Assembly (NCBI GenBank): GCA_014905635.1
Contig: JABVCE010000032.1
Span: forward strand, 186,001 to 250,000
DNA length: 64,000 nucleotides
Source: Scenedesmus sp. PABB004
Taxonomy: Eukaryota
Reading direction: 5' to 3'
Shown here: one piece after another, positions 1,001 to 63,920 of the stretch
Position numbering within the stretch: the stretch's first letter is position 1
Layout: every line of letters starts with the position of its first letter
Position numbers and translations under genes: made by a program
The notes under the pieces: model-generated
Seen by the model: the letters and a program-made list of their open reading frames with translations, nothing else
What the model was told of the DNA's origin: nothing
The model's database searches: none

Positions 1001-1232
1001 GCCGCGTGCTCGACTTTGACTTTGACGGACGTCGTGGGCCAGCCGCGCGCCAGCTTTCGCTTTGCGGCCACCTTGCCCTCCACACCCCCCCCCCCACAAG
1101 GAAGGCCACAGGGGCTGCAAGGTGGGGCGGTGGCCGGGCTGCGCGGGGCGCGCAGGCAACGAGGGGCACGGCCTGCGGCTCACGCTGCGCACCTGCCTGC
1201 GCGACCGCCAGGTCACGCTCATCCACGAGTAC
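1001..1232 (+). pseudogene. Degenerate internal fragment of the Nudix gene (intron retained)
   Basis: Diverged match to about 52528-52747 (VLDFDVVG... intron ...VTLI.EY), with frameshifts. Confidence 0.8.
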
Positions 1233-1660
1233 GACGATTGAGTTCCCGCTTGCCTGCGGCATCACCGTGGCACGCCGGTGCGGCTGGGGACGTCGGCGGG
1301 CGAGCGCGCGAACTGCCAGCGCCTGCCACCAGCTCGCAGGCTGTTCACCAGCCCCCGCCGCTTTTCTGTTCCTGCATCCGCGGCGTCGCGGTGGACAGCG
1401 TGCCGAGCGTGAAGTCTCGACAAGGCCGACGCTCGTCGAGCTGCGCCTGGGGCTGCGGTGGTTGCACTGCGTGCCCCAGTGCCGCCGATGGCAGCCGCGC
1501 CCGGCACACGGCCTCGGCGCCTGCACACCCACGCCCGCAGGTGATCGATGTGTCGAGCGTCATCCACGGAACAGCGTGGTCCATGCCAACCAGAGCGACC
1601 TCATCGTGGATGCCGCTGAGCCACCTTCACGTGAGCGCCGCGCCGCGCCAGCCGTCGTCG
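1233..1660 (+). pseudogene. TGD2: Degenerate TGD2 fragment (middle exons plus introns) fused to the Nudix fragment
   Basis: TIEFPLACGITV...IRGVAV...NSVVHANQSDLI; matches the reverse complement of about 50600-51063. Confidence 0.8.
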
Positions 1661-1824
1661 GGCAAAGCTAAGGATTCCCATGCAGAGCGCCCAATGCGTG
1701 GGGTTTGCTGGTTTTAGTACATATCAAAAATAGGAGAAAGTTGTAAAAATCGATGTAAAACTGGCCACCTGCACAGTCTCAGCACACTGCCCAGTTGCAC
1801 AGCGTTCCGCTCATTTGCAACCGG

Positions 1825-2166
1825 ATGTCGAATAAACAGCCGGGCTCGCCGGCCAAAAAATCCAGGTCACGGCACAAACAGTATGCCCTGTGCTGGTCGT
1901 TTGTCACTATAATCGTTCTTTTCTCTCACAGATTTCAAAATCCGTCAAAAGTTTCAGTCGTCGTGCCACCTGGAGTTCCAGATGTCGACCCTGAGTTGAC
2001 GAGAGGCGCGAATTTTCAACCATCACCACCACTCACTTCTGTGAACAATCACAGCTTTGACCCAGGCATCACCTACCGCAGCTACTACTCCGACGACGCA
2101 GAGCGCCCGAATGTGTGCAGGCTGATTGGCAGCGGGCGCGCTCCGCCTGCCCTCGCGCCTGGGTGA
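1825..2166 (+). pseudogene. 5' fragment of a low-GC intronless type II membrane protein gene
   Basis: MSNKQPGSPAKKSRSRHKQ (basic), YALCWSFVTIIVLF (TM), then a Pro/Ser stem; low-GC sequence ends near 2100; AT-rich leader at 1710-1760. Confidence 0.55.
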
Positions 2167-2773
2167 ACGAGGCTGGGGCGGTGGCAGGCTGCACGTCTAA
2201 TGTGCCGCCCACACGACGACCCTGTCGTCGTGTGGGCGGCACCCAACGCCCTGCAGGAGGGCGTTGACGAGTTCTTTGAGGCCGTGCAGGCCTAAAAAAG
2301 GCGGCCGCTGAAGGAGGCCGCGCCGCTGCTGGAGGAGGCGGCGCAGCTCACCAAGGAGGTCACGCCCCTGCTGCAGGTCTGGTTGAGGGGAGGGGGGTGG
2401 GGCAAGCGAGGCGCGAGGCACGCGCTGGGCGCTCGCCGCCGCCGCTGCCGCCTGCAGCACGCCGCGCGCTTGCCTGTCTTGCACCCCCCCCCCTAAACAC
2501 AACCAGGAGCTGCGCGCGGGCGGGCTGGTCGCCAACCTGGACCACCTCACCGAGGCGGCGGCGGGCGCCGCGGCCGACATCCAGGCGCTGCAGAGCGCGG
2601 TGCTGACCGACGACAACGTGCGCGCGCTGCGCGCCGCGGTGCTGACGCTGTGCAAGACGCTGGAGCACGTGGAGAGCATCAGCGCCGACGTGAGCGTGTT
2701 CAGCCGCGACACGGGCGTGCAGCGCAACCTCAAGACGCTCATCACCGCGCTCAGCCGCATCATCGAGGAGTAA
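2160..2773 (+). pseudogene. TGD2: TGD2 3' fragment (last intron and exons) with a premature stop
   Basis: EGVDEFFEAVQA* ... ELRAGGLVANLDHL...LITALSRIIEE*; reverse complement of about 49783-50377. Confidence 0.85.
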
Positions 2774-2879
2774 GGGGGGGGGGGGGGGACTGGCGGTGGC
2801 GTCTGCGGGCGGGCGCCGCCGCCCGCCCGGGCGCCCGGCAATGCGCCGCGGGCCGGCGGTGGGCCAGGCTCCTCGCGCG

Positions 2880-3390
2880 ATGGCGGGCGCCGGCCGACAG
2901 CCAGCCGGCGGCGCAGCAACTCCACACTCGCGCAGCGCAGCGCAGGATGCTCCCCGCCACGCGCATCCACACCGCTGACGGCGTCACCGCCCCGCCGCCG
3001 CCCCGCAGCGGTCGCGCTGGCGGCGCGCCAGGACGAGGCGCTGGACGGCATGATGATGAATGAGCTGCAGCCCGTCAGCGACCCCGTGCCCAGGCGTGCG
3101 CACGCGACACGCGCCGCTGGGCCGCCACCGCGGCGCGGCGCCACTGCAGCCACCCGCGCCCGATCCCGCGGCGCGCGCACGTGCCCCACCACGCACCCGT
3201 GCCTCACCCGTGCCTCGCCCGCGCCGCCCACAGGCTGCTGGCCGAGGCGCTCGGCAGCGCGGGCGCGTACGGCGGCGCGCCCACCGCCATACCCACCACC
3301 ACCGCCCCGCCCGCCCAGAGCGGCGCGTCGGCCGCCTCCGCCGGCGTGCAGAGCCTGCTAGCGGCCGCGCTCGCGCTCGGGATGTTCTGA
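2880..3390 (+). pseudogene. Small intron-containing gene or remnant, possibly secreted/GPI-type
   Basis: Exons VALAARQDEALDGMMMNELQPVSDPVPR and LLAEALGSAGAY...PTTTAPP...SLLAAALALGMF*; further copies at about 11410-11800 (-) and 13008-13095 (-). Confidence 0.4.
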
Positions 3391-3836
3391 GCGGCGCCTA
3401 CCTCCAGGGGGTGCCGAGCGCGGGTGCGCGCTGGGCGGCCAGCCGCCGCGCACAGCGGCGCGCAGCACGTGCGCCGCCGCTGGCCCGGCCAGTGCGCCCG
3501 CAGCTCGGCCGCCCGCCGTGCGGCGCAGTCGCTGCGCGGCGCGCGGTTGTGCTGGCGTGTGTCGGCCCGCCCCCCTGACCATTGGCCGGCGTCACGGCTC
3601 CGTGGCTGTGACCGAGGCGTGGGGCGGCCGAGGTCGGGCCGGGCGTCGGGGGCACTCTGCCTGGCTCTGTGCTGGCCCTGCGATTGATTGCCGCAGCAGC
3701 CCAGCGTGCGCCTCGCCACTGCGCGACAGGCCTGAATAATGTCTGTCGAATCGCACTGTGTGACCGGGTGACTCGACTCGCTCGACTCGCTCGCGCGCGC
3801 ACGCCGTCGACGCTCCCCCGCCCTTCACCCGAGAGC

Positions 3837-3970
3837 CCGCAGCGGGTCACGTCTTTGTTGCCTGCGCCTGCAGCTCCGCGCGGCTGTACCACACGATGCC
3901 CGCCATGCGATGTCGCGCACGCCAGCCCGGCGCCCTTTCAGCGACAGCTCGTCCCCGAACAGCACCCCAG
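3837..3970 (-). pseudogene. Copy of the 3' end of the nucleotide-sugar transporter gene
   Basis: Near-identical to 13103-13225 (LFGDELSLK...GIVWY). Confidence 0.8.
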
Positions 3971-4108
3971 CACGCGGCGGCTATCGCCTGCGCGGGGTTG
4001 GCCGCTACAATCGCCGCCACGATAACAAAACCCTGATCACCAGGTATTGAAAAAACGCAAAGGTATTAATAAAGCACTTTGGCACTTGTAATCACCAGAC
4101 CAACCGCT

Positions 4109-5092
4109 ATGGCGACACGTCCGTGCCGCGCTGTGTTCTTTGCAAGCAGCTTATGGCTTTTTTGCATGCTTGTTTTCTACTTTAATAACAATGAACGGAA
4201 AGTGCCTGAATCGAATGAAGCCGTTAACTTTACACAGCAGCGTCCACTGAAGCTGTACGAGCACCTATACCATCAACACTATGACGGCTTAATCAAAGCG
4301 CGGCAACTCGCCAAAGAGTTCTGCGCGGGGCCGCCACCGATAGCAAACACGCCCCATCACACGCACTGCCTGACGGGTGTGCTTGACAGCGAGTTGCTGT
4401 ACTTGCGCATAAGACATTTCCAGCCCAGCACAGTTGTCGAGGTGAGCTCTGCTCACGGGTACTCCACGCTGTGGATCCTTGTTGCGCTGGCTCACAACAA
4501 CAACGGGGGTGTCCTGCACAGCTATGACATTTTCCCCACCCCGTTTCCGCGGGTTTTGCCCGAGGCGCATCGGAAGCACTGGCAGTTTCACGAAGGGGAC
4601 ATGAAGGGGTCTTTTCAAGCTTCCCTTGTCAACACCCATGTCGACTACCTGCACATCGACACTTGCCACGAAGCGCCTTGCGTGCGTTGGTACTTGCGGA
4701 ACGTTCTGGAGTTTGTGGCTGCCAAGGTGACACCGACAAGGCCCACATACGTTTCGATGCACGACATCTACGAGACTTTCTACCAAATGGGCTCCAATGT
4801 GTCCAGCACAGCCGAGAAGGTCATGCCCATGCAGGAGGGCGTGCTGCTGTTTGAGTGGCTCGCTTACTCCGGGACAGCGCGGCACCTGCACAACTTTAAT
4901 CCGGGCGCGAGCACCATGGCTGACCAAATCCAAGCTGTTCGGACCAAGTTGCTCAAGGACGATGCCAACGACCTGTTGCGCATGCCGTGTCCATCCTGCC
5001 AGGGCTGGTCTGGTCGCGACCCAATATTTACCGTGTACTTTGAGCTGATGCCCCTTGAGGCAAACTGCTGCGACGATTGTATTGTCACTTGA
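4109..5092 (+). CDS. Intronless low-GC class I SAM-dependent methyltransferase (Methyltransf_24-like) with N-terminal signal anchor
   Basis: ATG 4109; TM AVFFASSLWLFCMLVFYF; motifs VVEVSSAHGYSTLWI, LHSYDI, FHEGD, VDYLHIDTCH, SMHD; AT-rich leader 4021-4100. Confidence 0.75.
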   Translation: MATRPCRAVFFASSLWLFCMLVFYFNNNERKVPESNEAVNFTQQRPLKLYEHLYHQHYDGLIKARQLAKEFCAGPPPIANTPHHTHCLTGVLDSELLYLRIRHFQPSTVVEVSSAHGYSTLWILVALAHNNNGGVLHSYDIFPTPFPRVLPEAHRKHWQFHEGDMKGSFQASLVNTHVDYLHIDTCHEAPCVRWYLRNVLEFVAAKVTPTRPTYVSMHDIYETFYQMGSNVSSTAEKVMPMQEGVLLFEWLAYSGTARHLHNFNPGASTMADQIQAVRTKLLKDDANDLLRMPCPSCQGWSGRDPIFTVYFELMPLEANCCDDCIVT

Positions 5093-5102
5093 GTAAAAGT
5101 GA

Positions 5103-6120
5103 GAGCACTCTGCCGCACCCAATCGAGCTCTCTGCCGCACCCAATCAAGCTCTCACGAGCAGCACCGCCGATCAACAACTGGGAGCTCGGAGACGCTGTC
5201 TGCGGCGCCCGAGCCGACCACGCCGCACCAGGCGCCCGCGCCGCCGCGCCGGCGCGCGCGGCGGGGGCCCGGCGGCGCCGGCGTAGCGTGCGCGCCGCCG
5301 CTGCGCGATGGGGCTGACGACCCCGACTCCAGCGGCGACGACAGGGACAGCCCGCCGAGCTGGGCGGCTGCGGATGAGGGCGCGCGCCAGCTCGAGGCGG
5401 TCGCGGCGCGCCTGCTCGCACAGTCCCGGCAGGCGATCCAGAGCGCGCAGCAGACGCTGCAGGAGACGGCGACCAACTGCCAGGCCAACCTGCAGAGCCT
5501 CGGCACGCTGCTGCAGGCGGTCAGCCTGCAGCAGACGGCGGCGGGCGAGGTCAGCCTGCAGACGGCGGCGGGCGAGCACGGCCTGCCGCGCAGCAGCAGC
5601 GGCGGCAGCCTGCAGCTCGCGCCCTGGCAGCAGCCGAGCGGCGGCGGCGGCGGCGAGCAGGCGGCGCCGTGGGACTTGGTGCCGCGCGCGTGGCGCGACG
5701 GCGACGAGCAGCAGCAGCCGCCGTCGGCGTCGGGCAGCAGCAACAGCCTGGTGCTCTTTGCGCGCAAGGCCAACGGCGGGCTGCTGCCGGAGCGGCCCGG
5801 CGGCAGCAGCGGCGAGAACGGCACGGGCGGCGAGGGTGGCGGCGGCGGGTACCAGCAGATGGCGGACTACCTGGACCTGCTGCACCGCCGACGGCCCGCC
5901 GCGCGCAGCCTGCGCGACCCGGGGCGCTCCGTGGCGATCGTCACGACCGCGAGCCTGCCCTGGATGACGGGCACGGCGGTCAACCCGCTGCTGCGCGCCG
6001 CGTACCTCGCTAACAACGAGGAGCGCCAGGTCACGCTGCTGCTGCCGCCGTGGTGCGCGCCGCGCCGAGCCGCCGTGCCCGCAGGCGCCAGCCGGCTCCG
6101 CACCTCCGTCTTGACACGCA

Positions 6121-6152: not shown

Positions 6153-8147
6153 AGGCTGTCGCGGCCGGACCAGCAGCTCGTCCTCCCCAACACCGTCACC
6201 TTTGACTCGCCGGCGGACCAGGAGGCGTTTGTGGGGGAGTGGGCGCAGAAGCGCACGGGGCTGGCGTGCGGCTTCAAGGTCCGCTTCTACCCCGGCCGCT
6301 ACGCGCCGGAGAAGGGTGCGGCGCGGCGCGGCGCGGCAGGCGTGTCGCGGCGCCCGCTGCAGGCCGCGCGCTCACGCGCGGCCGCCGCCGCCCGGTGCTG
6401 CAGGCAGCATCCTGCCCGTGGGCGACATCACGCAGTACATCCCCGATGCCGAGGCGGACGTTGCGGTGCTGGAGGAGCCGGAGCACCTCAACTGGTGCGC
6501 GCTCGCAGCGCCCGTCCAGCGCGTGCGCGGGCGTGCCGGCCCTCACTGAGCGCTGCCGCCGCGGCCGCCGCAGGTACCACCACGGGCGGCGCTGGACGGA
6601 CAAGTTCCAGCACGTCGTGGGCGTGATGCACACCAACTACCTCGACTACGCGCGCCGCGAGGAGCGGGGGCACATCAAGGAGGCGCTGCTGCGGTGCGGG
6701 CGCTCGCCACGCGGGGACGGCACCGCATGCACCCTGGCGCCGACGGCGCGCGCCGCGCCCCCGCCGCTGCGTGCAGGCACATCAACGCCTGGGTGTGCCG
6801 CATCTACTGCCATAAGGTCATCAAGCTCAGCGACGCGGTGCAGCCGCTGCCGCGCGAGGAGACCATGTTTGTGCACGGCGTCAGCCCCAACTTCCTGCGC
6901 GTCGGCGAGGCCAAGGCAGCGGCGGCGGCGCAGGGCGCGCGCGCGTGGTCCAAGGCGCGCGCCGGGGGCGCTGGGCGGGGCGGCGCGGGGCCGGGCCGGC
7001 TGGCGCGGCCTGACCGCGGACGTGGCCGGCTCGCCGGCGCAGGGCGCCTATTTTTTGGGCAAGGTGCTGTGGGCCAAGGGCTACACGGAGCTGCTGGAGC
7101 GCCTCAACGAGCACGCCGCGGCGACGGGCGACAACGTGGAGGTGGACGTCTACGGCGCCGGGCCCGACCTGCCGGTGCGCCGCCGCAGGGGCGCACCGTA
7201 GCCCCGCTCCGCAGCCCCGCGCCACCCGCCGACCCGTCGTTGCCGACCCGGCGCCGGCACGCACGCGCCCCTGCGCCGCCGCCGCCGCCGTGGCCCGCGC
7301 AGGCGGTGCAGCAGGAGGCGGCGTCGCGGCGGCTGAACCTGCACTTCAACGGCCCGCGCGACCACGCGGACGCGTCGCTCGCGGACTACAAGGTCTTCAT
7401 CAACCCCAGCCTCAGCGACGTCGTCGCGACGACCACCGCCGAGGCGCTGGCGATGGGCAAGTGGGTCGTGTGCGCGGAGCACCCCAGCAACGAGTTCTTC
7501 GCGCAGTTCCCAAACTGCCTCGTCTACAGGCGCGTTCTGAGCGCCCGCCGGCGCGCCGCCCGTCCCGCGCGCGGCGCCCGCCGCTCAACGCCGCCGCCGG
7601 CGCCCGCCGACGCCCCCCCCCCTTCAGGACGCCGGACGAGTTCAGCCGCTGCCTGCGGCACGCCATGGCGCGCGACCCCGCGCCGCTGTCGGCGGAGCAG
7701 CTGCACCGCCTGACGTGGGAGGACGCGACCGAGCGCTTCCTGCAGGTCGCCGAGCTGGGCCGGCCGCCGCAGCCGCAGGAGCAGCTGCTCGACAACCTGC
7801 TCGCGGCGGCGCACAGCGCGCTCACGGGCGTGGAGGGGCTGCGCGTGCTCGCGGGCGCGGGCGCGGGCACGCGCGACTCGCCCGCGAGCGTGACCGCCTA
7901 CACCCCGAGCGAGTCGGACGTGGGCGGATGGTTCGACGACGCGAGCCGCGCCAAGCGCGCCTACGGCGGCGGGGGCGCCGTCGGTGCCAGCGCGGCGGGC
8001 GAGCAGCCTCGGCGGCGGCAGGCGCAGCAGGCGCAGCAGCAGCAGCAGCAGCAACGGCAGCAGGCACCGCCGGGGCCAGCGCGAGCAGGGGCGGCCGCGC
8101 CCGCCGCGGCCGAGGCTGCGGGGCGGCAGGGCGCGCGGCAGCGCTGA
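5103..8147 (+). CDS. DGD1: Digalactosyldiacylglycerol synthase (GT4), multi-exon, 5' start codon apparently missing
   Basis: [85 protein letters not shown]; about 7 introns; frame open from 5103, first in-frame ATG at 5859. Confidence 0.9.
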
Positions 8148-8387: not shown

Positions 8388-9712
8388 ATGCGCGCCCCGC
8401 TGCTCGCCGCGATTGGCCTCGCCCTCCTGGCGGCCCGCGCCGCGGCCGCCGACTCCGAGCGGTCCGCGGTCGAGGCGGAGCTCCGCCATGCGAAGGTGGG
8501 AGCGCGGCGGGCGGCCCTGGGGCGCGCCGGAGCACGCGGGCGGGCCCGCCGAGCGCGCGCCCCCCGCAGGCCGATCCGCGCGGCGCCTTCGCGGCCTGGG
8601 CGGCCCGCCACGGCAAGGCCTACGCCAACGATCTGCCGGTGCGCGCCGCGGCGGCGCGCGGGGGGCGCTGCGGGCGGCGGGGGCGGGCCATTTTGATGCG
8701 CTGTCTGCCCGCGTGCGCGCAGGAGGCGCGCTTCCCGGCCTGGGCCGACAACCTGGCGTTCGCCGAGGCCTACAACGCCCGCCACTCCTCGCACTGGGTG
8801 CGGGGACAGGGTAGCGGTGCTGGAGCGCCCCGCGCGCTCCGCTGCTGCCTCACGCGCGCGCCGCCGCCACCCTTTTCGCCGCGCGCAGCTCGGCCTCAAC
8901 TCGCTGGCTGACCTGAGCCACGAGGAGTACAAGGCCAAGTTCGGGCTGGGCGTCTCCAAGTTTGCGCGCCCGCCGGGCGCCGCGCGCAGCGGCGGCTTTG
9001 TCCACGGCGCGCTCGACCCCGCCACGCTGCCGCCCGCCGTCGACTGGCGCGCGCAGCGCGCCGTGGCGGAGGTCAAGAACCAGCAGCAGGTGCGCGCGGC
9101 GGTGATGGTGGCGCATCGTGCGCCGCGCCAAGCGCCGCCCCCGCGGCGCGCCGCCGACGGGGGCCACGCTGCGCCCCACGCAGTGCGGCTCGTGCTGGGC
9201 GTTCAGCACGACCGGCGCGGTGGAGGGCATCAACGCCATCGTCACGGGCGAGCTGGTGTCGCTGAGCGAGCAGGAGCTCGTGGACTGCGACGTCAAAAAG
9301 GACAAGGGTGCGGCCGCAGCAGCGCGCGCGCAGGGCGGCGGGCCGCTGGCTGCGCCGCCGGCTCGCCCGCCCGCGCCCGCCCGCGCCCGCCCGCGCCTGC
9401 CGACGCGCCTGCGCCTGCGTGCACCACCAGGCTGCTCGGGGGGGCTCATGGACTTTGCGTTTGAGTACATCGTCAAGGCCAAGGGCATCCACGCCGAGGC
9501 GGACTACCCCTACACCGGTGCGCGCGCGGCGCCCGCTCGGCCGTGCACACAGCCCCTTCCTCCACTCTTCCTCATCCCCGCGCCGCGCGGCGGCGCAGCG
9601 ACGGACGGCGGTGAGTGCCGCCGCGAGCAGCTCAACACGCGGCCGCTGGTGACGATCGACGGCTTTGAGGACGTCCCGCCGTACGACGAGGTCGCGCTCA
9701 AAAAGGCGGTCT
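8388..9712 (+). pseudogene. Papain-family (C1A) cysteine protease, 3'-truncated
   Basis: Signal peptide, I29 propeptide, LPPAVDWR, QCGSCWAFS, SLSEQELVDCD, GCSGGLMD; breaks after ALKKAVS, so the catalytic His/Asn half is absent. Confidence 0.9.
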
Positions 9713-9996
9713 CGCGGCCGGCCGCCGACGCCGTGGCGGTGAGGCGGCGCAGCCACTCGTCGCGGTCGCGCGCCTTCATGTTGAACGTGATTACGCTGCC
9801 GTACCTGGCGGTGCGGCGCGGCGCTGGAAGGAAGCTGGCGCGGGCTGGCGCAGATGCACCACCGCGCACGCGCCCCACACCTGTAGACGACCATGATCTG
9901 GCGCTCCCCCGGCCCGCCGCCGCCGCCCAGCAGCACCTTGTCCTCGTGCAGGCCGTCAAACTGGGGGCGGCGCGCGGGCTGAAGGGCTGAACCGCG
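9713..9996 (-). pseudogene. Internal fragment copy of the RMND1-like gene
   Basis: Matches about 32295-32587 ([12 protein letters not shown]...ERQIMVVY / YGSVITFNM), intron retained. Confidence 0.85.
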
Positions 9997-10418
9997 CCAG
10001 CAGCAGCGTCACCACCTAGGCGCCTAGCGAGGGCCAGCGCCTTCTGGCGGCAGTGCGGCCGGGTCGCGGCAGCACCGGCGACCGCTGCCCGGCTGCTGGG
10101 CACGCCTGGTGTGCGGCCAGGACGCGGCCTCGCGCGGCGCGAGCACGAGGCGCTGCGCCAGCGTCACCACCATCGCCTGCTGGCGCTCCGGCTGCTGCGC
10201 CGCGCCCGCGTCAGCCGCGCCGCCGCGCTTGGCCGCCCGCTGCTGGCGCCGAGCTCTGCAGCGAGAAAGGCCACCAGGCCTGTAGCAGCCGGCAGGTGAA
10301 CCCTAAACCCTTGACCAGTGTCGGAGGAATAAGGGCATTGGGCTCCTCTGGCGGCAGAGCGGCGGCGCATGGCGGCGGCGGGCTCATCGAGCCGGCACGA
10401 GGACATGCTGACCCGGCG

Positions 10419-11261
10419 TTACGGGCATGTTTTCAAATAATCGTGGTCATGCACAACTGGTGAGAGGTCGCCCCGGACGCGACATTCGCCCTTTTGCCGC
10501 GTGTGCGGCAACCACCGGTCGCGCCCACTCACGACAATTGAGCGAAACATGGCCGTGGCTTTGCTTTCTGCGTGCTTTATGGTGGAAATGTTGGGGTCAA
10601 ATACAATTGCATCTGGCCGGACGGCAAAGAAATCCGTATTTATAAGGGCTGTTGCGCAGTTCTTCTCATCAGGGCAGGGCGTGTCCCCGCAATCGGCAAA
10701 GATGCCGTCCACGTCAGCATTGTGCATCGCTTCCAGCAGCCACGTGTCGTTGCGAATGATGACGTCAGGGTTGAGCCGGATCACCCAGTCAAACCCGTCA
10801 AACCACCCTCTCGCGAGCGCCACATCCAAAGCCAGGATGGCACCTTGCTGGTAGCCCGGGTTGGTGTACTCGTGCAGAGTGACGGTGGTGTTGGGAAACG
10901 TGCGCGCCAGCAGCTCTGCCCGCTCCGAGTAGCCGCAGCCGGTGGAAAAGACGGTCACCTGTTCCACAGAGCGCAGCAGCGCTGACCGCACGATGGCTCC
11001 GGGCCAGCAGCGCTGCAAGAACTGGACGTGGGAATCCGAGAATTGGGAGGTGATGAAGAGCGCAACGCGAGGGCTGCTGCTGTTTGTGAGATTGTTGGTA
11101 GTGTTGGTCGCGCGTGAGCCGAGCTTCCATGCCGTGACTTTAAAAGACCAGGAAGCCTCTGCGGGAGTCCTGAGAACGTGCCACACCGCATCCGTTGAGA
11201 GCAAGGCGAATCCGAGCACGACAGCTAAGACCGTCGCCCTTGTGCTGGCGTCCGTGGACAT
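10419..11261 (-). CDS. Intronless low-GC type II membrane protein, putative GT-A-like glycosyltransferase of unknown family
   Basis: TM VLAVVLGFALL; stem with N-x-T/S sequons; NPGYQQGAILAL, FDGFDWVIRLNPDVIIR; clean 280-aa ORF. Confidence 0.6.
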   Translation of the reverse strand: MSTDASTRATVLAVVLGFALLSTDAVWHVLRTPAEASWSFKVTAWKLGSRATNTTNNLTNSSSPRVALFITSQFSDSHVQFLQRCWPGAIVRSALLRSVEQVTVFSTGCGYSERAELLARTFPNTTVTLHEYTNPGYQQGAILALDVALARGWFDGFDWVIRLNPDVIIRNDTWLLEAMHNADVDGIFADCGDTPCPDEKNCATALINTDFFAVRPDAIVFDPNISTIKHAESKATAMFRSIVVSGRDRWLPHTRQKGECRVRGDLSPVVHDHDYLKTCP

Positions 11262-11362
11262 TTTTTAATTTATATTTATCCTCCACTCCACTAACATTTT
11301 TAGTTTTGTCTGCGTTTTTCAGTCCAGTGCGCTAACAATTCACAACAAATAAAATAACCCTT
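11262..11362 (-). promoter_or_regulatory. AT-rich leader / putative promoter of the 10419-11261 gene
   Basis: Minus strand reads ...GTTATTTTATTTGTTGT...TGAAAAACGCA...GATAAATATAAATTAAAAA-ATG; motifs shared with other insert leaders. Confidence 0.5.
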
Positions 11363-11409
11363 AGCTCACTCAGGCAGCCGGCGCTGCTGCGTGGGTGGCG
11401 CCGCTTTTT

Positions 11410-17549: not shown

Positions 17550-17558
17550 CCAGCGAAC

Positions 17559-18750: not shown

Positions 18751-18766
18751 CAGCACCGTGCGGCTC

Positions 18767-45020: not shown

Positions 45021-45069
45021 GCGCCCGACGGTGCGGCTGCGCGGCGGCCCCCACGCCCGGCGGCGCGAA

Positions 45070-46082: not shown

Positions 46083-46089
46083 CCAACCG

Positions 46090-49782: not shown

Positions 49783-50051
49783 TCACTCCTCGATGATGCG
49801 GCTGAGCGCGGTGATGAGCGTCTTGAGGTTGCGCTGCACGCCCGTGTCGCGGCTGAACACGCTCACGTCGGCGCTGATGCTCTCCACGTGCTCCAGCGTC
49901 TTGCACAGCGTCAGCACCGCGGCGCGCAGCGCGCGCACGTTGTCGTCGGTTAGCACCGCGCTCTGCAGCGCCTGGATGTCGGCCGCGGCGCCCGCCGCCG
50001 CCTCGGTGAGGTGGTCCAGGTTGGCGACCAGCCCGCCCGCGCGCAGCTCCT

Positions 50052-50082
<31 letters not shown>

Positions 50083-51602: not shown

Positions 51603-51978
51603 AGTGACGGGGAGCAGCTGCGTCCAGGCAGCCTGCGCGGCCGGTGCTGCTGCTCCCTCTGCTGCGAGCTGGCCAACGCCGGAGATCGCTCGCGCTTTGG
51701 CCCTGGATGGTCAGCGGCCAACGAGCGAGCAGCGGGCTGTGGCAGCCAGAGGCCTGCGCCGCAGCCCGCCGGCCGCAGGCCGCGGTGCGCGACGCCGCGT
51801 TTTTGGCACTGCGCCGCCGGCATGTCCGATCTTGCCCCCCACTCAGCTCAGCTTGGGTGTGCGCGCCCTCATCACGCCACCGCCGGGCCTCACAGCGCTG
51901 CGGCAGCCGCCAACCGCCGCTGCTGCAGCCGCCTCGCGGCGGAGCACGCATCTAGCCAGCCCGTTGCTGGCGCGCTGC

Positions 51979-53321
51979 ATGCGCCTGGCGGTGTCGGGGG
52001 CGCTGCTGGCTCGGCGGGGCGCTGGCCTGGCGGCACGCGGCGCCTGGAGCAGCAGCGGCAGCAGCGCCCGCGGCGGTCGCGCGGCAGCCTCGGCGCGCTG
52101 CTCGCCCGGCGGCCCAGGTGCGGCGCGCGGGCTGTGCCTGGAGAGGCTGCGCGGCCGGCGGCTGGCTTGCGCGTCGCCACCAACGCATGCGCCGCACGCT
52201 GCCCGCCTCTGCCGCCGCCCGCTACCCCCAGGCAGCGCGGAGCCGCCGGCGCAGCCCACGCAGCAGCAGCACGCAGCGCCCGACAACGGCCGCCAGCTGC
52301 ACCCGCAGCCGGCGCTGCAGGTCGCGCCGATGCAGCAGTACGAGCTCGTGTCGGAGGCGCCGCTGCACAGCCGCTACCTGACCGTGTACGACCGCCGCGT
52401 GCGCTTCTGCGCGCCCGGCAACCCCGCCGAGGTGTGCGGAGCGGCGCAGGGGGCCACAGCCAGGCGCGCACATGCGTGGTGCTGACCGCAGCCCGCGGCC
52501 GCCGTGCCACCTCTCGCGGTCGACAGTGCCGCGTGCTCGACTTTGACGTCGTCGGCCACCCGCGCGCCAACTTCTGCTTCGCGGTCACCTTTCCCTTCCA
52601 CCCCTACAAGGACGGCCGCAGGGGCGGCGAGGTGCGGCGGTGGCCGCGCTGCGCGGGGCGCGCAGGCGACAAGAGGGGCGCCGCCTCTGCGGCTCACGCC
52701 CCGCGCCTGCCCGCCGGGCCGCCAGGTGACGCTCATCCGCGAGTACGCGCAGGGCCCGCACGCGCTGGCTTACTGCCTGCCCACGGGCGGGCTGGACCCG
52801 GGGCGCCACGCGGACGTCGCCGAGTGCGCCGCGCGCGAGCTGAGCGAGGAGGTGCGCGGCGGGCGGGCGCGCGGGGGCAGCGGCGGCTCTTTGGTGCTTG
52901 TCCGAGGCTGGCCGTGTGCCGCCACCTCGCGCCTGCCTCTACCTGCGCAGGCCTGGCTGGCGGGCGGCCAGTGGCACCGTCTGCTGGCGCCGGAGCACCC
53001 GGGGCTGCCCGAGGTCAAGTGGTGCATGAACCGCTTCGTGCCGTTCCTGGTGGTCGACCCGGACACCGACCCCCAGCCGGGCAGCCGGGACGCGGAGGAG
53101 GCGAGCATGGAGGCGCGTGCAGATGCTGCCGGGCGCTGCAGTCGGGTGCCGCCGCGCCCGCGCACCGCCGCCGCCCGCCCGCTCGCCTGCCGCAGGTGCT
53201 GCGGCTGCCGCTGGACGAGTTTCGGCGGCTGATGGTGTCGGGCGAGATGCTGCTGCCCTCCATCACCACCGCCTACATGGCGCTCGACAGGCTGCGCGAG
53301 CTGGGCCTGCTGGACGACTAG
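51979..53321 (+). CDS. Nudix hydrolase with organellar targeting peptide, intact
   Basis: Nudix box LPTGGLDPGRHADVAECAARELSEEA; six exons splice in frame. Confidence 0.85.
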
Positions 53322-53357
53322 CGGGCGATCAGGGCGGCCCAGGATGTGCAGCAGGTG

Positions 53358-53362
53358 TGTAA
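53358..53362 (+). terminator. Chlorophyte polyadenylation signal TGTAA
   Basis: 37 bp after the Nudix stop; conserved in the duplicate near 15653. Confidence 0.5.
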
Positions 53363-53546
53363 CCTTGTGGTCCCACCGGGCAGCACGCACTGAACCCTCG
53401 CCGCCAGCACCAGGCCTGCGCGAGCGCCGCGGCCGCCGCCAGCAGCAAGCCATGCCGGCGTTTGCGCTCAGCACCGCTGGGCCCCGCCAGCAACGCACGC
53501 GTGCGCGGCGCGCGCCAGTGCCCGAGCCACAGCGCCGCCGCCAGCT

Positions 53547-54341
53547 TCACTTGGCGGGCACGATGACCACGGGCCGCTTGCTGTGGTGCGTGCAGTACTG
53601 GCTCACGCTGCCGAGGAAGAACTCGGCGACGCGGCCCTTGTTGTGGCTGGCCATGACGATCGCCGCCGCGTCCAGCTCGTCTGCCTTTTTGCACAGCACG
53701 TGGCCCACGCTCTCGGTGTCGACCTCGGACTGCGCGCGGCGGCGGTGGCGGCGGTGGCGCTGTGAGGTGCTGCTGCGAGCAGAGCGCGGTCGTGCGCAGC
53801 GCCTGACGCTGCGCGCCCGCTGCCCTCACCTTGACGATGTGCACGACCGGCGCCCTGATCGCCGGCGGCAGCGCGCGCACGAAGCGGTCGATGATGAACT
53901 GCTCCGCGCGCTGCACACGCGGCAAGGGCAGAGGGGGCGACGGCGCCAGGGCGCTGGTCAGCGCGCCCGCAGCGCGGTGGCAAGCGCCCAGCGAGGGAGC
54001 GCGCGCGCGCACCTGCACCGCGGACTCGTACGCGCTGCTCTCCGCTGCGGGCACAAAGTCCACCGGCGGCACGCCGTACTGCGGCCGGCGCGTGCCGCGG
54101 CGTGAGAGGCAGGGCAGGAGAGGGGCGGCGGCGCTGACGCACTGCCGCGACTCGGCCGCCGCACCTGCGCCGCGAACGCGAGGCGCGGCACCACGTGCAC
54201 GAGGTGCAGCTGGTCGCCGGCGCGGTGCAGCTGCTCCAGCGCCCAGGCGAACGCGCGGGCGCTGTCGTCGCTGTCGTCGACCGCGATGAGCAGCACGCGC
54301 TGCTGCTGCTGCTCCGCGGGCGGCGGTGCGAGCTCAGCCAT
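53547..54341 (-). CDS. Universal stress protein A-like
   Basis: Same USP motifs as 39964-40766; four exons. Confidence 0.85.
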
Positions 54342-54569
54342 CGCCTCGCAGCTCAGCGCAGTGCTGCTGAGCGGGCGTGGCTCGCGCGGCGCGCGGACCA
54401 GGGGTGGTGGCGTTCGTGCGCGCCGCCGCCGCTGCCGATCGCTGTGCGGCTGGCGAGGGCGGCGGCGTCGGGAAGCGAGCGGGAGGGCGGCCGTTGCACC
54501 ACGGCTTTCTGGACGACCGGCCGGCAACTCACAAGCACCCCTCCAACCGCGCGGGGCTTTGCGAGCCCG

Positions 54570-57500
54570 TCACGACGCGCCGCCGCCCGCGCGCACGGGC
54601 GGCGGCGGCGCGGCGTCAAAGCGCTGCGGCGGGCGCGCGGCGTGCAGCCACGCCTGCTGCGGGCCGGCCGCGTGGTCGGGGCAGACAAACTCGTCGTCGC
54701 CCGCCACGCCCGCGCAGCCCGGGTGCATCGCCACGCCGCACCCCGGCGTCTCGCACAGCGCGACCTCGCCGCCGCCGCCGCAGGCGAGGCAGGGCAGCGC
54801 CCACTTGCCGTCCGGCGGCTCGTCCGCGTCGGCGTCGGCACCATCCCCGGCCACGTCCTCGCCTGGCAGGCCCAGCTTGGTGCGCTGGCGCGCCGACACC
54901 TTGCGCTTGGGCTCGGCGGCGTCGGCCTGCGCGCGCGTGGGTGCGGGCGGGCAAGGCATGTGGGCGCTGGCCGCGCTCGTGACTGCACCGACGAGGCCGC
55001 CGCCGGCGACAGCAAAGCCTACGCGCCTTGGCGCTGCGCGCCGCGGCCGCGCGCGCGGCGGCGCCCTTCTTGTCCTCCAGCAGCGCCTCCTCCCACGGCG
55101 CGGGGCCCAGCAGCAGCTCAGACTTGCGCGCCACCGCGGCGCCCCTGCGGGCGCCGTGGCGGGGGCGGGCGGTGCGTGAGGACGCCGCACTGTGCCGCAC
55201 ACAGCCCTCCCCCCCCCCCCGTCCCCGGGGGCTCGCGCGCGCCCCCACCTGTCCTCCGCGATCGCCGCCGCCACGCCGGTGCGGATGCGCGCGAGGGCGA
55301 GGTTGGACATCAGGCGCTGCGGGCGGCGGCGGGAGGGGGCGGTGAGGCCGGCGGCGCGCGCAGGCGGCGCAGGCCCGGCGGCGCAGGCGCGGCTCCGCTC
55401 ACGTGCGCGCGGTCGACGAGCGCCGCCGTCGCGTAGGCGGCGCCGCCGAGCGCGCCCGCGCTGCGCGCGCGCCGCAGGTCCTTGATCCACACCCCCAGCT
55501 CGCGGCTGCTGCGCCACAGCACCACGGGCGGCGGCGGCAGCGGCTCGCCCGCCTTTTCGGCGGCGCGCTTCTCAAGGTAGCGCTTCTCCGCCTCCACGTC
55601 TGCGGCGGCGGGGCGTGCACGCGTGCGCGGTTCAGGGCGTGCGGCACCCGGGCAGAGCGAGACGCCGCCGGCCGCCGCCGCGCCCCCCACGCCTGCACGC
55701 ACCCGAGTCGTCGAGCTCCTCCAGGGGCGCGACCATCTTGGCCACGTCCTCGCCCCCGCCGCCCGGTGTGCCCGCGCGGCCGGCGCCCGCCTTGCGCACG
55801 CGCGTGGCGCCCGAGAAGAGCGTGACGAGCGGGCCCCTGTGCGAGGGGTCAGGGTTGGCACTGTCGTCGTCGCCGCCGCCCTCGTCACCGCCGCCGGCGG
55901 CCGCCGCGCCGCCCTTCTTGGCGCCGCCGCCCTTCTTGCTGCCGCCGCCCTTGCCCTTGGACTTGCTGCCGCCCTTGCCGCCGCCGCCCTTGCCCTTGGC
56001 GCGGCTGCCACCGCGCCCGGCTGGCGCGGCGGGCGGCGCCGGCGCGCCCTTGGCAGCCCCGCCGCCGCCTTCCTCCCCGCCCTCGCCGCCGTCGGCGCCG
56101 TCGCCGCCGTCGCCGCCCTCGCCCGCGGCCGCCTTCTCGGCCGCGGCCGCGGCCGCGGCCGCCGCGGCCGCGGCCGCGGCCGCCGCGGCCGCCTCCTGCT
56201 GCTCCGCGAGCTCCGCCGCCGACACGGGCATCACAAACTCGGCCTCGTACGCGTCGGCCTCGCGCACCGCCTCGTCCAGCAGCTCCTCGGTCGCGCCGGG
56301 TGGGCGGCCGTCGCCGACGCGCGACAGTGCGGCCTCGAGCTCCTCCAGCACCTGGCCTGCGGGCGTGCGCGTGGCCGGGGGGGGGGGGACACCGTGGCGG
56401 ACGAGCGCGTCGTTGCCTGCTCAGCCCGCGCCGCAGCAGGCGGCGCAGGCGGCGCGCGCGACCGCGGCGCGGCGGCGCGGCGCGAGGCGCGCGCGCCGCT
56501 CGCTCACAGAGCTCGTCCACGCTCGTCTTGCCGCGCAGGCGGGCGCGCCAGTGCTTGACGGGCAGGTCGTAGATGCCCGCGCCCACGAGCGTGCTCACGA
56601 GCGCCTCCAGCTCGCTCAGGCACGCCGCCACCGCGGTCGCCTCCGCGCACGCCTGGGCGCGCAGGCGGGAGTGAGGAGGGGCGTGGGCATCAGTGGCGCT
56701 GCAGGCTCGGTGCGCTGGGAGGCTGCACGCGCAGCCGGCGCCGCGCGTCGCACCCGCACCTGCAGCTCCTCGCAGGACGGCGGCGGCGCGCGGGCGCGTC
56801 CTTCCAGCTGCTGCCCGCCGGCCGGCCCCCGCGCGGCCAGCCCGTCGCGTCCAGGGGCGCGCTGGCCGGCATGGCGGCCGCGGCGCGGCGCAGCCAGGCG
56901 GCGCGCTGCCGGCGGCCGCGCGGCACGGAGCGCACGTCGAGCGGCAGCTCCGGCGGGCGCAGGCAGCGGGTAAACTCGTCGCGGCGCCTGTGCAGCGCCT
57001 GGTGCAGCGCGCCCTCGCGTGAGCCGCGCTTGTTGAGCGCCGCCAGCAGCGCGTCGAGCTGCACGCGGCTGGTGATGAGGCCCAGCGAGTCGCCCCCGGC
57101 CGACTCGACAAAGATGACGGACGGGTCGGACTGCAAGCGCGCGGGGCGCGGTGGCGGCGGTAGGGGAAGGGGAGAGGGGCGTCAGAGCGCCCTCTCCTCC
57201 CCCCCGCTCGCCAGCCCCCGCGCCCACCTGCATGTGCCAGTAGCGCTGGTGGTGGCGGTCGGTGCCCAGCGGCTCGGAGCGAATCGCCTGCCGCGCCGCG
57301 TCGGCGGTGAGCGCCTCGGGGTCCTCCGCGCCGCGCCACGCGCTGCTGCCGCCGCCGCCGCCGCCGCCGTGCCAGCCGTCCGCGGCGCTCGACGGGTCGG
57401 GCGTGTCGTCGCGCGCGCTGAAGCCTGCGGGGGGGGGGGGGCACGGGCGCATGGGGCGGCCGGCTGCGCGCCCGCCGCACACACCCCGTGCGCCGGCAGG

Positions 57501-60769: not shown

Positions 60770-61613
60770 TCTGCCGCGAGGGGGCCCGGCGGCTTCCTGG
60801 GCAGCCTCTACATATGAGCGGCAGCACGCGAGGACACGCACGTCGCTCACACGGCTGTGCGCCGCCGCAGGCCCGACCGCTGGCGCTCGACGCGCAGGTC
60901 GCTGCGCGACTTTGGGCTGGGCCGGTCGAGCGTGGTGGAGGGCGGGATCGGCCTTTTCACGCTCGCCGACGGCCTGCTGGGCGTGGCGCTGCTGGCGTGG
61001 GTCAAGGGCACCGCGCTGCGCAAGGGCCGGCCGTACACGGCGCCGGTCGAGTTCCCACTCGCCTGCGGCATCACCGTGGGCACTCCGGTGCGGCTGTGAG
61101 GCGCCGGCAGGCGCGCGAGTTTTTGCGCGCCTGTCGCCAGCTCAGCAGCCGCTCCAGCCGCCGCCGCTTGCCCGTTTCTGCACCGCTCCCAGGTGCGCAT
61201 CCGCGGCGTTGCGGTGGGCAGCGTGCTGAGCGTCAAGCCCAGCCTCGACAAGGTCGACGTTCTCGTCGAGGTGCGCCGGTGGCGGGGCGGCGCACTGCTC
61301 CCCTCGCCCCAGTGCCGCATCGCGCGTGTCCGACGGCACGCGGCCTCGGCACCTGCACTCGCGCCCCGCGCCTGCTGGTGAACGACGTGACGAGTGTAAT
61401 CCCGCGCAACAGCGTGGTCGAGGCCAACCAGAGCGGCCTCGTCGCAGATCCGCTGGTCGACGTCACGCCCCAGCTGCCACTGCCCACCTTCACGTGAGCG
61501 ACGCGCCGCCAGCCTGCTCGGACAGCACAATCGTGCCGTCACGCCGCCGCGACGCGCGGCACCGCCGGCGCGCTGTGTGCGAGGCGGCCGCGTGCGAGGC
61601 GGAAGACGCGATT
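60770..61613 (+). pseudogene. TGD2: Inverted partial TGD2 duplicate
   Basis: GGFLGSLY / SLRDFGLGRSSVVEGG ... LPLPTF / AACEAEDAI; damaged splice sites; 3' half missing. Confidence 0.9.
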
Positions 61614-62104
61614 GGGGCCCGACATGAGTTTGTCAGCAAACCAGAACGTGTGCGTGAAGGCGTCCAGCACCATGAGCGCGGCCAGGCTGGAGAGCGCCGC
61701 TGTCTCGGCATCAGCGTCGCCGTCGGCCGCGCGTCTGCACGATCAGCTCGCCGCCAAAGCGCACGAGCACATTGGCACCAGCATCTCCACCACGTCATTC
61801 GTGTGCTGCAGCGCAAATAGTCGAGCAGGCCGTGCTAGGCTCCTCCGCCTCCAAGGGTGCAGAGCGCCGCTGCGCCCAGCTGCCCAGCCGCTGCGTGCAG
61901 TGGCACATTGCGCGCACGCGCGCCACCGCTGGCCAGGCTCGTGCGGCCGCGGTGCGATGGCCTGACCGTTGTTGCGGCCCGGCGCCTGTGTTGGCCCGGC
62001 CCGCCCGTGCTCCTGACCATTGTCGGGGCGTTATGGCTCCGTGGCTGTGACTGAGGCATGGCGGGCGGCCGCGGTCGCCGGGTGCGTCTGTCACATGGCT
62101 GGAA

Positions 62105-62361
62105 ACCCCAAGGCTTCAAAACTGACAGTCAAAAAGTCAAAGTGATGTTCCTGCCTCCTGCAGCAACTCTCGCAGAGGACGACACTTGGCAGGGGGGAGA
62201 CTGGTTGCGTCTGCGGCTTTGTGGAAAGTCCAAGTAAAGCCTGGTGGCGCCCCACTATCGACGAAGTGGACGTCGAGATTGTCTGCGCAGACTGCAGCGT
62301 GCACGAGTGTGTATGTCGAGCGGTTGGCTGTGAGCGCTTTGAAATCAACCAGGCTTGCTTC
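62105..62361 (-). pseudogene. Frameshifted FkbM-like (Methyltransf_21) methyltransferase fragment, low GC
   Basis: EASLVDFKALTANR...VHAAVCAD..VHFV...CRPLRELLQEAG, then a frameshift to HFDFLTVSFE (compare HIDFFSLDVEG). Confidence 0.55.
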
Positions 62362-62572
62362 AGCGGCCGCCGCTGGGACGGCGCCCGCAGGTGGCCGCTG
62401 CGGCGCTGGCTGCCACGTGGGCTGGCGCACGTGGCAAAACACATCAAGTGTACAATTATTCAACTGTGCGTAGGACTTGCCGCGAACTTTTTGAGCATGT
62501 CCCGGGCGTCGCCGATGAAGGTGGCGGCGATGCGGGGAGGCGCGGACACGAAAGAAACACTCGTGGCGCGCG

Positions 62573-62792
62573 CAGCACGGCGGTGGAGGCGAGCATGTGC
62601 AGAGCAATGCTGCAAGACGCACACGTGCCGGGCCTGATCGACGAGTTCCTGTTTGGCTACCACGTCACCTTTGCGCCCATGGTGGGAGCGGGCTGGGGTT
62701 TGACGATCGATTCGAATGCGATGCTTGTGGACGCGTTCCAGCTGTTTGCAGAGCTGCGGCGGCACGGCGTGCGCGCGCACTCCTGGGTGTAA
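62573..62792 (+). pseudogene. C-terminal fragment of a different putative FkbM-like methyltransferase
   Basis: LIDEFLFGYHV...WG...DAFQLFAELRRHGVRAHSWV* resembles the C-terminus of algal FkbM-like proteins, recognised from memory. Confidence 0.5.
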
Positions 62793-63387
62793 TGTCTGAC
62801 TGCCTGCTGGATCCGGGCGTCGCGCGTGAGCAGTTGCACGCCAACCATGCCACACGCTCACGAGGCGTGCTGGCGGCCGCGCGCGTGCAGGCATGCCCCC
62901 CCCCCTCCCCAGCCACGCGTGCAGACCACCTGACGAACTCGAGGGGGCCCAGCAGCATCAATCCAGCTGGCTACCAACACAAACTCTCGACTGTGGCCAA
63001 CCCGCGCGCGGAACGTCAGCTGCGCTGGCATCCGCGTGCACTGGCAGCAGCTGCGCAGCTACTGGTGCGTGGAGCCAGCGGGGGGCGTCCTGCCAAGCAT
63101 TCCTGGCCGTCTGCACTTGCACAACCATGCAGGACGCTGCCCTGGGTATGTGGAGGTGTCGCTGGAGGCATCGCTCGACTGAGCCCAGGCTGACCAGAGC
63201 ATAAGAGTGTCGGCACCATTGCCAAGTGCTGGGCCGCCGCCCTGGCCCGAGCTCACCCGACCATCCACTCTGCCCAGCCATGATGCAGGTAATGTGCTGG
63301 CCTGTGGCTGGCATGGGTGAGCGCCGGCATCACACCACGGCGTCCCACTAGGCGGCGAGCAGCCCGCGCAGTAGCCACGGATGACAC

Positions 63388-63920
63388 CGGCCGCCAGCTG
63401 CACCCGCAGCCGGCGCTGCAGGTCGCGTCGATGCAGCAGTACGAGCTCGTGTCGGAGGCGCCGCTGCACAGCCGCTACCTGACCGTGTACGACCGCCGCG
63501 TGCGCTTCTGCGCGCCCGGCAACCCCGCCGAGGTGCGGAGCGGGGCGCAGGGGGCTAGACGGTCGCACCGCGCGCGCACACCCAGGGCCGGCGCTGACCG
63601 CAGCCCGCGGCCGCCGGGCCACCTCGCGCGCGCGACACAGTGCCGCGTGCTCGACTTTGACGTCGTGGGCCACCCGCGCGCCAACTTCTGCTTCGCGGTC
63701 ACCTTTCCCTTCCACCCCTACAAGGACGGCCGCAGCGGCGGCGAGGTGCGGCGGCGGCTGCGCTGCGTGGGGCGCGCAGGTGAGGGGCACCGCCTGCGGC
63801 TCACGCCGCCCGCGCGCCCTCCCGCCCGGCCGCCAGGTCACGCTCATCCGCGAGTACGCGCAGGGCCCGCACGCGCTGGCCTACTGCCTGCCCACGGGCG
63901 GGCTGGACCCGGGGCGCCAC
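63388..63920 (+). pseudogene. Internal Nudix fragment copy (introns retained)
   Basis: Matches about 52287-52809; breaks inside the Nudix box after PGRH. Confidence 0.9.

Follow-up and report, generated by a model that had tools for sequence, protein, structure and literature searches.

In a 64,000-nucleotide stretch of the Scenedesmus sp. PABB004 genome (contig JABVCE010000032.1, positions 186,001-250,000 of the forward strand; assembly GCA_014905635.1), hereafter called the window, pieces of several genes have been copied and rejoined into a patchwork, while the original genes remain intact in the same stretch. This patchwork is genuine and old; it arose by DNA-level copying and is in decay. 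With moderate confidence we favor the view that breaks at this locus, which also takes in foreign-looking sugar genes, were repeatedly repaired by copy and paste, or that templates were switched, with DNA close by as the source; this explanation involves neither transposon capture nor an assembly artefact. The window contains zero N and has a GC content of 74%. According to a comparative study (PMC12571836), the genome measures 39.8 Mb (77 contigs) and contains 7,092 genes spaced at ~5.6 kb, with 78.5% GC and 1.31% repeats; few algal genomes described so far are as rich in GC and as poor in repeats. Of the 64,000 bases of the window, 23,122 fall in a copy or a donor. Because so few repeats are reported, a locus with one third of its length in local duplicates is unusual for this genome.

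The donor genes were identified by a Pfam scan of the 418 stop-to-stop open reading frames (ORFs) of at least 100 amino acids in the window, which upheld the gene names used here (SecA domains, DUF155/RMND1, Usp, NUDIX, MlaD for TGD2, and GYF). Two database proteins labelled Scenedesmus sp. PABB004, P0001 and P0003, mapped onto the window exon by exon at 100% identity. P0001 (secA, 1478 amino acids) corresponds to the intact SecA donor gene (33330-39630, forward strand, 20 exons), whose Pfam domains are SecA_DEAD, PP_bind, P-loop_SecA and SecA_SW. A segment of the RMND1/DUF155 gene (32289-32592, reverse strand; Pfam DUF155 in the ORF 31645-32571) served as a further donor. Donor block B (48709-54651) carries GYF (reverse strand), TGD2/MlaD (reverse, 49786-51212 and upstream), Nudix (forward, 52345-53312) and USP (reverse, 53400-54651), recognized by the Pfam matches GYF, MlaD, NUDIX and Usp. 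The exons of the TGD2 and Nudix donors are uninterrupted, as seen by tblastn with TGD2 and Nudix homologues. A database search with TGD2 over the range of 131-419 amino acids returned no protein at or near 100% identity, and the annotated model of the donor was not among the results.

Aligning the window against itself (self-BLAST) revealed 14 copy segments of 0.08 to 4.6 kb, summing to ~12.6 kb, with expect values between 1e-22 and 0, far outside chance; copy identities given here are BLAST identities with gaps counted. Non-adjacent nearby templates are joined in two places, at 14.4-23.3 kb and in a mosaic at the left end (997-3979). The first of these contains an inverted SecA copy (18728-23282, reverse strand; matching 39111-34498 inverted at 90% over 4.6 kb), preceded by copy c1 (17558-18749, reverse strand), which holds the 3' exons of GYF and part of the last TGD2 exon (18549-18749) and derives from 48709-49972 (82%). 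Copy c5 (14441-16222) comprises Nudix and the 3' half of USP (15699-16222) from donor positions ~52195-53914; its BLAST match pairs 14506-16222 with 52242-53914 (87%), and an exact 19-mer extends it back to ~14441. A low-GC island (island 5, described below) lies between c5 and c1. In the order c5, island 5, c1, donor block B is circularly permuted: its tail (52242-53914) stands ahead of its head (48709-49972), as expected from a tandem-duplication junction or from a circular intermediate.

The left-end mosaic begins with c7, an old fragment of Nudix exon B (997-1233, forward strand) that is closest to c5. It continues with c3, old and degraded TGD2 exons 2-4 (1232-1657, forward; matching 51064-50596 at 70% and 61041-61455 at 73%), and with c2, which spans TGD2 exon 5 to the last exon (2154-2799, forward; matching 50383-49758 at 85%). 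These are followed by two abutting inverted fragments (2806-3162 from 11827-11470, and 3163-3244 from 13094-13002), by an old relative of 61848-62082 (X', 3401-3643; 71%), and by the youngest fragment of all (3837-3979, from 13103-13237), which abuts island 3. The remaining copies lie apart: a piece of RMND1 at 9707-10000 (matching 32289-32592 at 89%); c4, TGD2 exons 1-4 with their introns, inverted relative to the donor (60781-61614, forward; matching 51375-50489 at 83%); and c6, which runs from Nudix exon A into exon C, where it breaks off (63359-63920, forward; matching 52251-52809 at 88%). Just after SecA stands USP' (39815-41081, reverse; matching 53400-54651 at 91%), which carries an N-terminal Usp Pfam match and a C-terminal exon at 39967-40143 and appears to be a duplicate of the whole USP gene.

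All copies listed in an earlier note on this DNA were recovered by self-BLAST to within ~70 bp, and four matches were added (2806-3162, 3163-3244, 3837-3979 and 2584-2784). The note had further described copies that keep their introns, occur in both orientations and join non-adjacent donor segments, for instance at position 1232 with a 2-bp overlap (CG); each of these observations was reproduced, with all templates inside the same 64 kb. Its picture of two intact donor blocks was incomplete and has to be extended by a third donor region at 11.47-13.24 kb, by at least one copy of a copy, and by a probable gene fragment at 44409-45098 that has no donor in the window (see below). The copy of a copy is c7, which has derived states in common with c5 (the copy at 14.8 kb) and not with the donor, so that copies must themselves have been copied at least once.

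The nature of the copies is clearest in the largest one. The SecA copy aligns unbroken through 14 donor exons and the intervening introns, and introns as well as intergenic DNA are also kept in other copies, including the introns of TGD2 and Nudix. Since the copies retain introns, occur in both orientations and are truncated or frameshifted, they are best regarded as unprocessed pseudogene fragments made at the DNA level; an origin by retroposition, which yields processed copies, was rejected because of the introns. Over 1047 codons the SecA copy differs from its donor by a synonymous divergence (dS) of 0.093 and a nonsynonymous divergence (dN) of 0.026, giving a dN/dS ratio (omega) of 0.28, and the aligned introns are 90.3% identical, a divergence of 9.7% that about equals dS. 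Mismatches at codon positions 1, 2 and 3 number 36, 24 and 72, and there are 133 transitions to 76 transversions. Because of this codon-position bias, the transition excess and the omega of 0.28, the differences point to evolutionary divergence and not to sequencing error.

The copies are decaying as genes. The SecA copy lacks the first 317 amino acids, including the MATGEGKT Walker A motif, and its exons carry indels of -5, -7 and net -1 bp, with ~47 further residues lost; given the missing N-terminus and the frameshifts, it is a pseudogene. When the 56 amino-acid differences of the SecA pair were compared with three outgroup SecA proteins, the copy had the derived state at 19 and the donor at 7, the other 30 being ambiguous, which suggests an omega of ~0.4 on the branch of the copy, relaxed but short of fully neutral. 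In c5, Nudix exon A (the first conserved exon) is degraded and exon B has a 1-bp deletion; c6 stops within an exon, 80 bases short of the window end; and the Nudix-TGD2 junction at 1232 is out of frame. Copy c2 contains an in-frame stop and a frameshift, and its last exon is identical to the donor at the protein level, with an identical run of 166 bp.

One of these mosaics has entered the annotation as a gene. The model P0003 ('SECA2', 1136 amino acids; 15860-23044, reverse strand) coincides exactly with one 7-kb mosaic: by exact exon mapping, it joins the exons of the truncated SecA copy to two exons in the GYF copy and two of the USP copy, and a Usp domain appears in its Pfam list. Its intron 16246-17559 spans island 5, with an intact gene on the opposite strand. 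In practical terms, a chimera of three pseudogene pieces masks an intact glycosyltransferase-like gene in its intron.

To place the copies in time, we used substitution-only divergence, taken from ungapped blocks of at least 20 bp with trimmed ends. Copy-donor alignments are rich in indels (15-40 gap events per kb at ~5% substitution), and BLAST identities (70-98%) are therefore misleading with regard to age. Substitution divergence was 0.053 for the SecA copy, 0.066 for c1, 0.056 for c5, 0.052 for USP', 0.049 for c2, 0.034 for c6, 0.061 for the RMND1 piece and 0.103 for c4. It reached 0.126-0.140 for c7, 0.136-0.151 for c3 and 0.21 for the pair 3401-3643 and 61848-62082, and was 0.079 for 2806-3162, 0.057 for 3163-3244 and 0.018 for 3837-3979. 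Seven of the eight larger pairs are homogeneous (SecA copy, c1, c5, USP', c2, c6 and RMND1; chi-square 6.9, 6 degrees of freedom, P = 0.33), and adding c4 breaks this homogeneity (P = 5e-5). These values suggest at least four age classes, at ~2%, ~5% (the seven fragments), ~10% and 13-21%, and point to one burst of copying at ~5% divergence. The earlier note had stated that the copies differ in divergence; this applies to the several age classes and does not apply to the seven larger pairs. Three members of the putative burst, c5, c1 and the SecA copy (0.056, 0.066 and 0.053), sit together at 14.4-23.3 kb. Three-way site patterns were star-like, with 20, 16 and 14 unique changes for Nudix and 27, 32 and 16 for USP.

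The match between 2584-2784 and 18749-18549 (98.5%) was considered as an especially recent copy and rejected, as the pairwise distances among the donor and its two copies are roughly equal (0.037, 0.037 and 0.056); the high identity is that of a slowly diverging last exon. The left TGD2 pseudo-copy (1232-2799) is collinear with its donor, yet its two halves differ from it unequally (0.136 versus 0.049). These unequal halves, together with the protein-identical last exon, may reflect ectopic gene conversion.

Besides the copies, the window contains a second class of unusual DNA. A two-state segmentation by GC content (hidden Markov model) delimited nine low-GC islands of 0.6-1.2 kb, with 52-60% GC against a background of 76.6%. 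Five islands hold intact intronless ORFs with N-terminal membrane anchors, and the GC content at third codon positions (GC3) of island genes is 0.58-0.72, compared to 0.94 for SecA. Very AT-rich DNA of 60-110 bp precedes each island ORF (4006-4108, 11262-11372, 16341-16496 and 45068-45155), and the low GC of islands 4, 5 and 6 stops 0-10 bp from the stop codon; a promoter-like tract and a single ORF together make up the compositional unit. Island 5 (16341-17560, forward strand) contains an intact intronless GT47/RXYLT1-like gene (16497-17549, 350 amino acids) and lies exactly between c5 and c1. Island 2 (1539-2127, forward) holds the 5' fragment of a membrane-anchored ORF of the island type and replaces 213 bp in the left TGD2 copy. 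Island 3 (4006-5201, forward) carries an intact intronless Methyltransf_24 gene (4109-5092), and island 6 (45068-46086, forward) an intact intronless DUF5672 gene (45156-46082). Island 4 (10419-11372, reverse) has an intact ORF of 280 amino acids (10419-11261); the nearest Atlas clusters of its protein include a nucleotide-diphospho-sugar transferase cluster that is 42% viral, which serves as a lead only. The ORF of island 1 (142-932, forward; ORF 159-743) is GT-A-like with a DDD motif and has weak Pfam matches to GT2 and GT43 (E 0.02-0.04), and island 7 (62087-62755) has no long ORF and begins 5 bp after 61848-62082. Short tandem repeats, perfect or nearly so, are found just downstream of the ORFs of islands 1 and 3 (775-844, 23 bp x 3 at 100% identity; 5103-5154, 22 bp x 2.4). 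Outside the islands, a GC-rich ORF (6550-7710, forward) matched Glyco_trans_1_4 below the threshold (E 3e-5; 24.7 bits, where 27 are required) and may be a further glycosyltransferase gene of the region.

The islands coincide with the edges of the copies. Island 5 fills the gap between c5 and c1 exactly, with its right edge 2 bp from the start of c1; a small low-GC patch begins 1 bp after the donor fragment 13103-13237; and the distance to a copy end is 27 bp for islands 2 and 3. Five of the 18 island edges were located within 30 bp of a duplication edge, compared to a random mean of 0.92 (P = 0.0015), and 10 of 18 within 120 bp (P = 0.0005); seven of the nine islands have such an edge. Island 6 has no adjoining copy. 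It abuts a probable enoyl-CoA hydratase fragment (44409-45098, forward strand; ECH_1 profile positions 26-158 of 251), which ends at the island and probably represents two-thirds, from the 5' end, of a gene for an enoyl-CoA hydratase (or multifunctional protein). Neither its continuation nor its donor was found within the window, and its parent would sit outside. The earlier note had missed the coincidence of islands and breakpoints, for which any mechanism must account. The coincidence is shown for this window, and any causal link between islands and breaks would go beyond it: the AT-rich units may be fragile sites, they may have come in through the repair events that also placed the host fragments, or they may simply survive best in junk DNA.

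Relatives of the island genes were found in cells and in viruses. The best database relatives of the GT47-like protein are 45-48% identical, Chlorella vulgaris among them. The gene appears to be unannotated, since the search of the database turned up nothing that was 100% identical or close to it. The profile of its family found relatives on 132 viral contigs of IMG/VR. Among the 80 contigs retained from these 132, 16 bear GVMAG names, which we take to denote giant-virus metagenome-assembled genomes, and several are 170-530 kb long. When six island proteins were compared by tblastn with these 80 viral loci, the GT47-like protein was found in 80 of 80, DUF5672 in three and the other four proteins in none. 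The three DUF5672 homologues (L019, 1848-2588; L030, 4037-4651; L035, 533-904) are 29-36% identical to the island 6 protein and lie less than 5 kb from the GT47-like gene; the two families are neighbours in some large viral genomes. Scans of viral contigs with single proteins, a mode that detects close relatives only, gave no confirmed relative for the DUF5672, methyltransferase and 280-amino-acid proteins. A tree of the GT47-like family with 76 rows comprised the window protein, 25 proteins from databases, and ORFs of those 50 of the 80 viral loci that passed a length filter. In it, the window protein fell into a well-supported clade of six rows; the other five are database proteins, of which Chlorella vulgaris is the source of one. 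This clade was placed within a poorly resolved set of mostly viral clades. Giant viruses share this family, and with their low GC3, lack of introns and families partly shared with giant viruses the island genes look foreign.

Taken together, the data describe a rearrangement-prone locus in a compact, GC-rich and repeat-poor genome. On at least four occasions, pieces of neighbouring genes were duplicated at the DNA level and inserted close by; they went in either way round, and often several unrelated pieces were set end to end, while the originals were left intact. Most likely, DNA that had broken or stalled was repaired by copy and paste, either through synthesis-dependent 'filler' repair or through replicative template switching of the kind known as fork stalling and template switching (FoSTeS) or break-induced replication mediated by microhomology (MMBIR), with nearby sequence as template. 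A main episode at ~5% divergence would have joined three unrelated pieces of equal age beside island 5. The copies have since decayed to pseudogene fragments, with one mosaic annotated as a chimeric gene, and breaks would recur at, or have arisen together with, the small low-GC intronless gene units. Both the repair mechanism and the foreign origin of the islands are what we infer from this arrangement, and it is the architecture and not the junction signatures that supports the mechanism. Repeated template switching on nearby DNA had also been proposed in the earlier note; its DNA-level nature, local templates and more than one epoch were borne out, and microhomology gave it no support.

Several observations weigh against this explanation. 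Only four junctions directly join two assignable pieces: position 1232 has a 2-bp overlap (CG), 3162/3163 an overlap of 0-1 bp, 2799/2806 no overlap and 6 unassigned bases between the pieces, and ~18749 is ambiguous within a GCC-rich stretch. The comparison of junction microhomology with a null, which the earlier note had suggested as a check, was negative: with 0-2 bp at these four junctions and at least 2 bp in 24% of random junctions drawn from the window, microhomology was not above chance, at very low power; it counts neither for nor against, and the usual MMBIR signature is missing. Junctions are hardly readable after 5-20% divergence. Moreover, differences between copies and donors are clustered, with identical runs of 87-178 bp (permutation P ≤ 0.012 for six of seven pairs); the divergences may have been reset, by exon constraint or by ectopic gene conversion, and the '5% burst' could then stand for several events. 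The 30- and 120-bp thresholds for island edges were picked after inspection of the data. Finally, the GT47-like island protein groups with cellular proteins, outside any viral clade, and the tree does not set the direction of transfer. Two further checks gave negative results: homopolymer runs in the window showed no clear relation to breakpoints, and a 30-base junction word had no exact match among metagenome contigs.

A serious rival is a stepwise history of segmental duplications, tandem or inverted and produced by unequal exchange or end joining, followed by deletions and inversions, with the low-GC genes landing later in tolerant junk DNA. Residual collinearity fits such a history (c5 runs over two genes, the SecA copy over 4.6 kb, and c3, island 2 and c2 are collinear with TGD2), as do USP', a clean whole-gene duplicate, and the succession of c5, island 5 and c1, which resembles a tandem-duplication junction of block B. 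With a gene every ~5.6 kb, as given in PMC12571836, insertions would also persist mainly in pseudogene DNA. However, the orders and orientations seen here would take many extra steps, a span of 9 kb unites three unrelated pieces of equal age, and in three cases island edges lie 1-5 bp from copy ends, where a late random insertion would have to truncate exactly. Reasoning from the coordinates, a single-step inverted or tandem duplication of a 22-kb ancestor was rejected, because it does not reproduce the order and orientation of c5, c1 and the SecA copy. We regard stepwise duplication as possible and on the whole unlikely.

Clearly less probable is the capture, by end joining, of free host and foreign (possibly viral) DNA at breaks, or the assembly of the mosaic on a virus or episome that later integrated. 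Host pieces do abut low-GC units directly, with 0-2 bp overlap and few unassigned bases, island 2 is itself a fragment of an island-type gene, and families of island genes are present in giant-virus contigs. Nevertheless, each of the 14 copy segments has its relatives inside this 64-kb stretch, whereas free DNA would be expected to come from the whole genome; the host pieces retain host GC and host introns; and no viral core gene was found among the Pfam matches of the 418 ORFs. The window also contains no tRNA and no match to an Rfam family, and thus no such mark of an integration site.

Helitrons and Pack-MULEs typically carry mosaics of gene fragments that contain introns and point in both directions. 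From this resemblance, capture by a Helitron, a Pack-MULE or another transposon could be suspected, and the earlier note had offered Helitron- or Pack-type capture as an alternative. The evidence did not bear this out. The Pfam scan of the 418 ORFs detected no transposase, Rep/helicase, integrase or reverse transcriptase; for Helitrons, the absence of Rep/helicase stands without a search aimed at Helitron ends. No terminal inverted repeats bracket the copy clusters among the 25 longest inverted-repeat pairs shown, all of which are the copies themselves or GC-rich low-complexity matches, and the flanks of the clusters have no mutual similarity in self-BLAST. At island 2, 213 bp were lost instead of a target site being duplicated, and the genome is reported to have 1.31% repeats (PMC12571836). 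We consider transposon capture very improbable. An assembly artefact or collapsed haplotypes can be all but dismissed on strong evidence, as the copies are 2-21% diverged from their donors with a codon-position bias and an omega of 0.28, where artefactual duplicates would be near-identical, and are truncated and rearranged, where haplotigs would be collinear.

The patchwork belongs to a known class, that of unprocessed pseudogene fragments arising from complex segmental duplication: introns and flanking DNA are kept, the parents are intact, and the copies show disabling lesions and relaxed constraint. Wicker et al., in Genome Research in 2010, reportedly described how whole genes and parts of genes are moved in plants when breaks are repaired with 'filler DNA'. 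Such repair is documented for maize (PMC2686159) and wheat (PMC3445842); intron-bearing pieces are pasted without transposon ends, often several together, and then decay, as in the window. In contrast to the plants, the host here is an alga with a genome of 39.8 Mb, 1.3% repeats and 78.5% GC, no donor is more than 50 kb away, and low-GC, foreign-looking genes are where the pieces cluster. Complex rearrangements of the FoSTeS/MMBIR type and chromoanasynthesis in humans and yeast (PMC13065848, PMC11293582) likewise share copy gain with intact originals, several nearby templates at one site and mixed orientations. They differ from the window in that the defining microhomology is undetectable here and that old (2-21%), layered events are seen instead of a single event.

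Giant endogenous viral elements are known in green algae (PMC9693826) and resemble the window in having low-GC intronless genes of giant-virus families inside an algal chromosome. The window differs by ~1-kb single-gene units, without a contiguous viral region and without a core gene in the Pfam matches, and on these grounds its interpretation as such an element was rejected.

The patchwork alone is ordinary, being known from plants and animals. What stands out is its setting, with scars at foreign-looking sugar genes in a GC-rich, repeat-poor genome, and it would be notable if the link between islands and breakpoints held genome-wide. If this link is causal, the locus records the entry of foreign genes into a streamlined eukaryotic genome and the damage left behind, and the idea of an unstable, virus-related glyco-gene region would extend beyond marine picoalgae.

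That idea comes from the small outlier chromosome of Mamiellales, which is the nearest biological analogue, with gene content and local instability being the features seen here. In PMC5082852, this chromosome is described as low in GC, unstable and tied to virus resistance (the 'viral immunity chromosome' of Ostreococcus tauri), with many glycosyltransferase and methyltransferase genes of putative foreign origin, including 8-14 glycosyltransferases per 102-290 kb. The window is similar in its rearrangement-prone, lower-GC DNA rich in foreign-looking glycosyltransferase and methyltransferase genes, and with five to six such genes in 64 kb its gene density is near that of the outlier chromosome. 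It differs in that low GC is limited to single genes in GC-rich host DNA, in that the host is chlorophycean, and in that it is not known to be linked to virus resistance. It is conceivable, though we would call it doubtful, that the window is part of a chlorophycean counterpart of this chromosome, a hypervariable region of small size (~330 kb). There, genes for glycosyltransferases and methyltransferases that are exchanged with giant viruses would have been taken up as single-gene units and shuffled by break-induced copy-and-paste repair, and the mosaic of host-gene fragments would be the scar tissue of this gene turnover.

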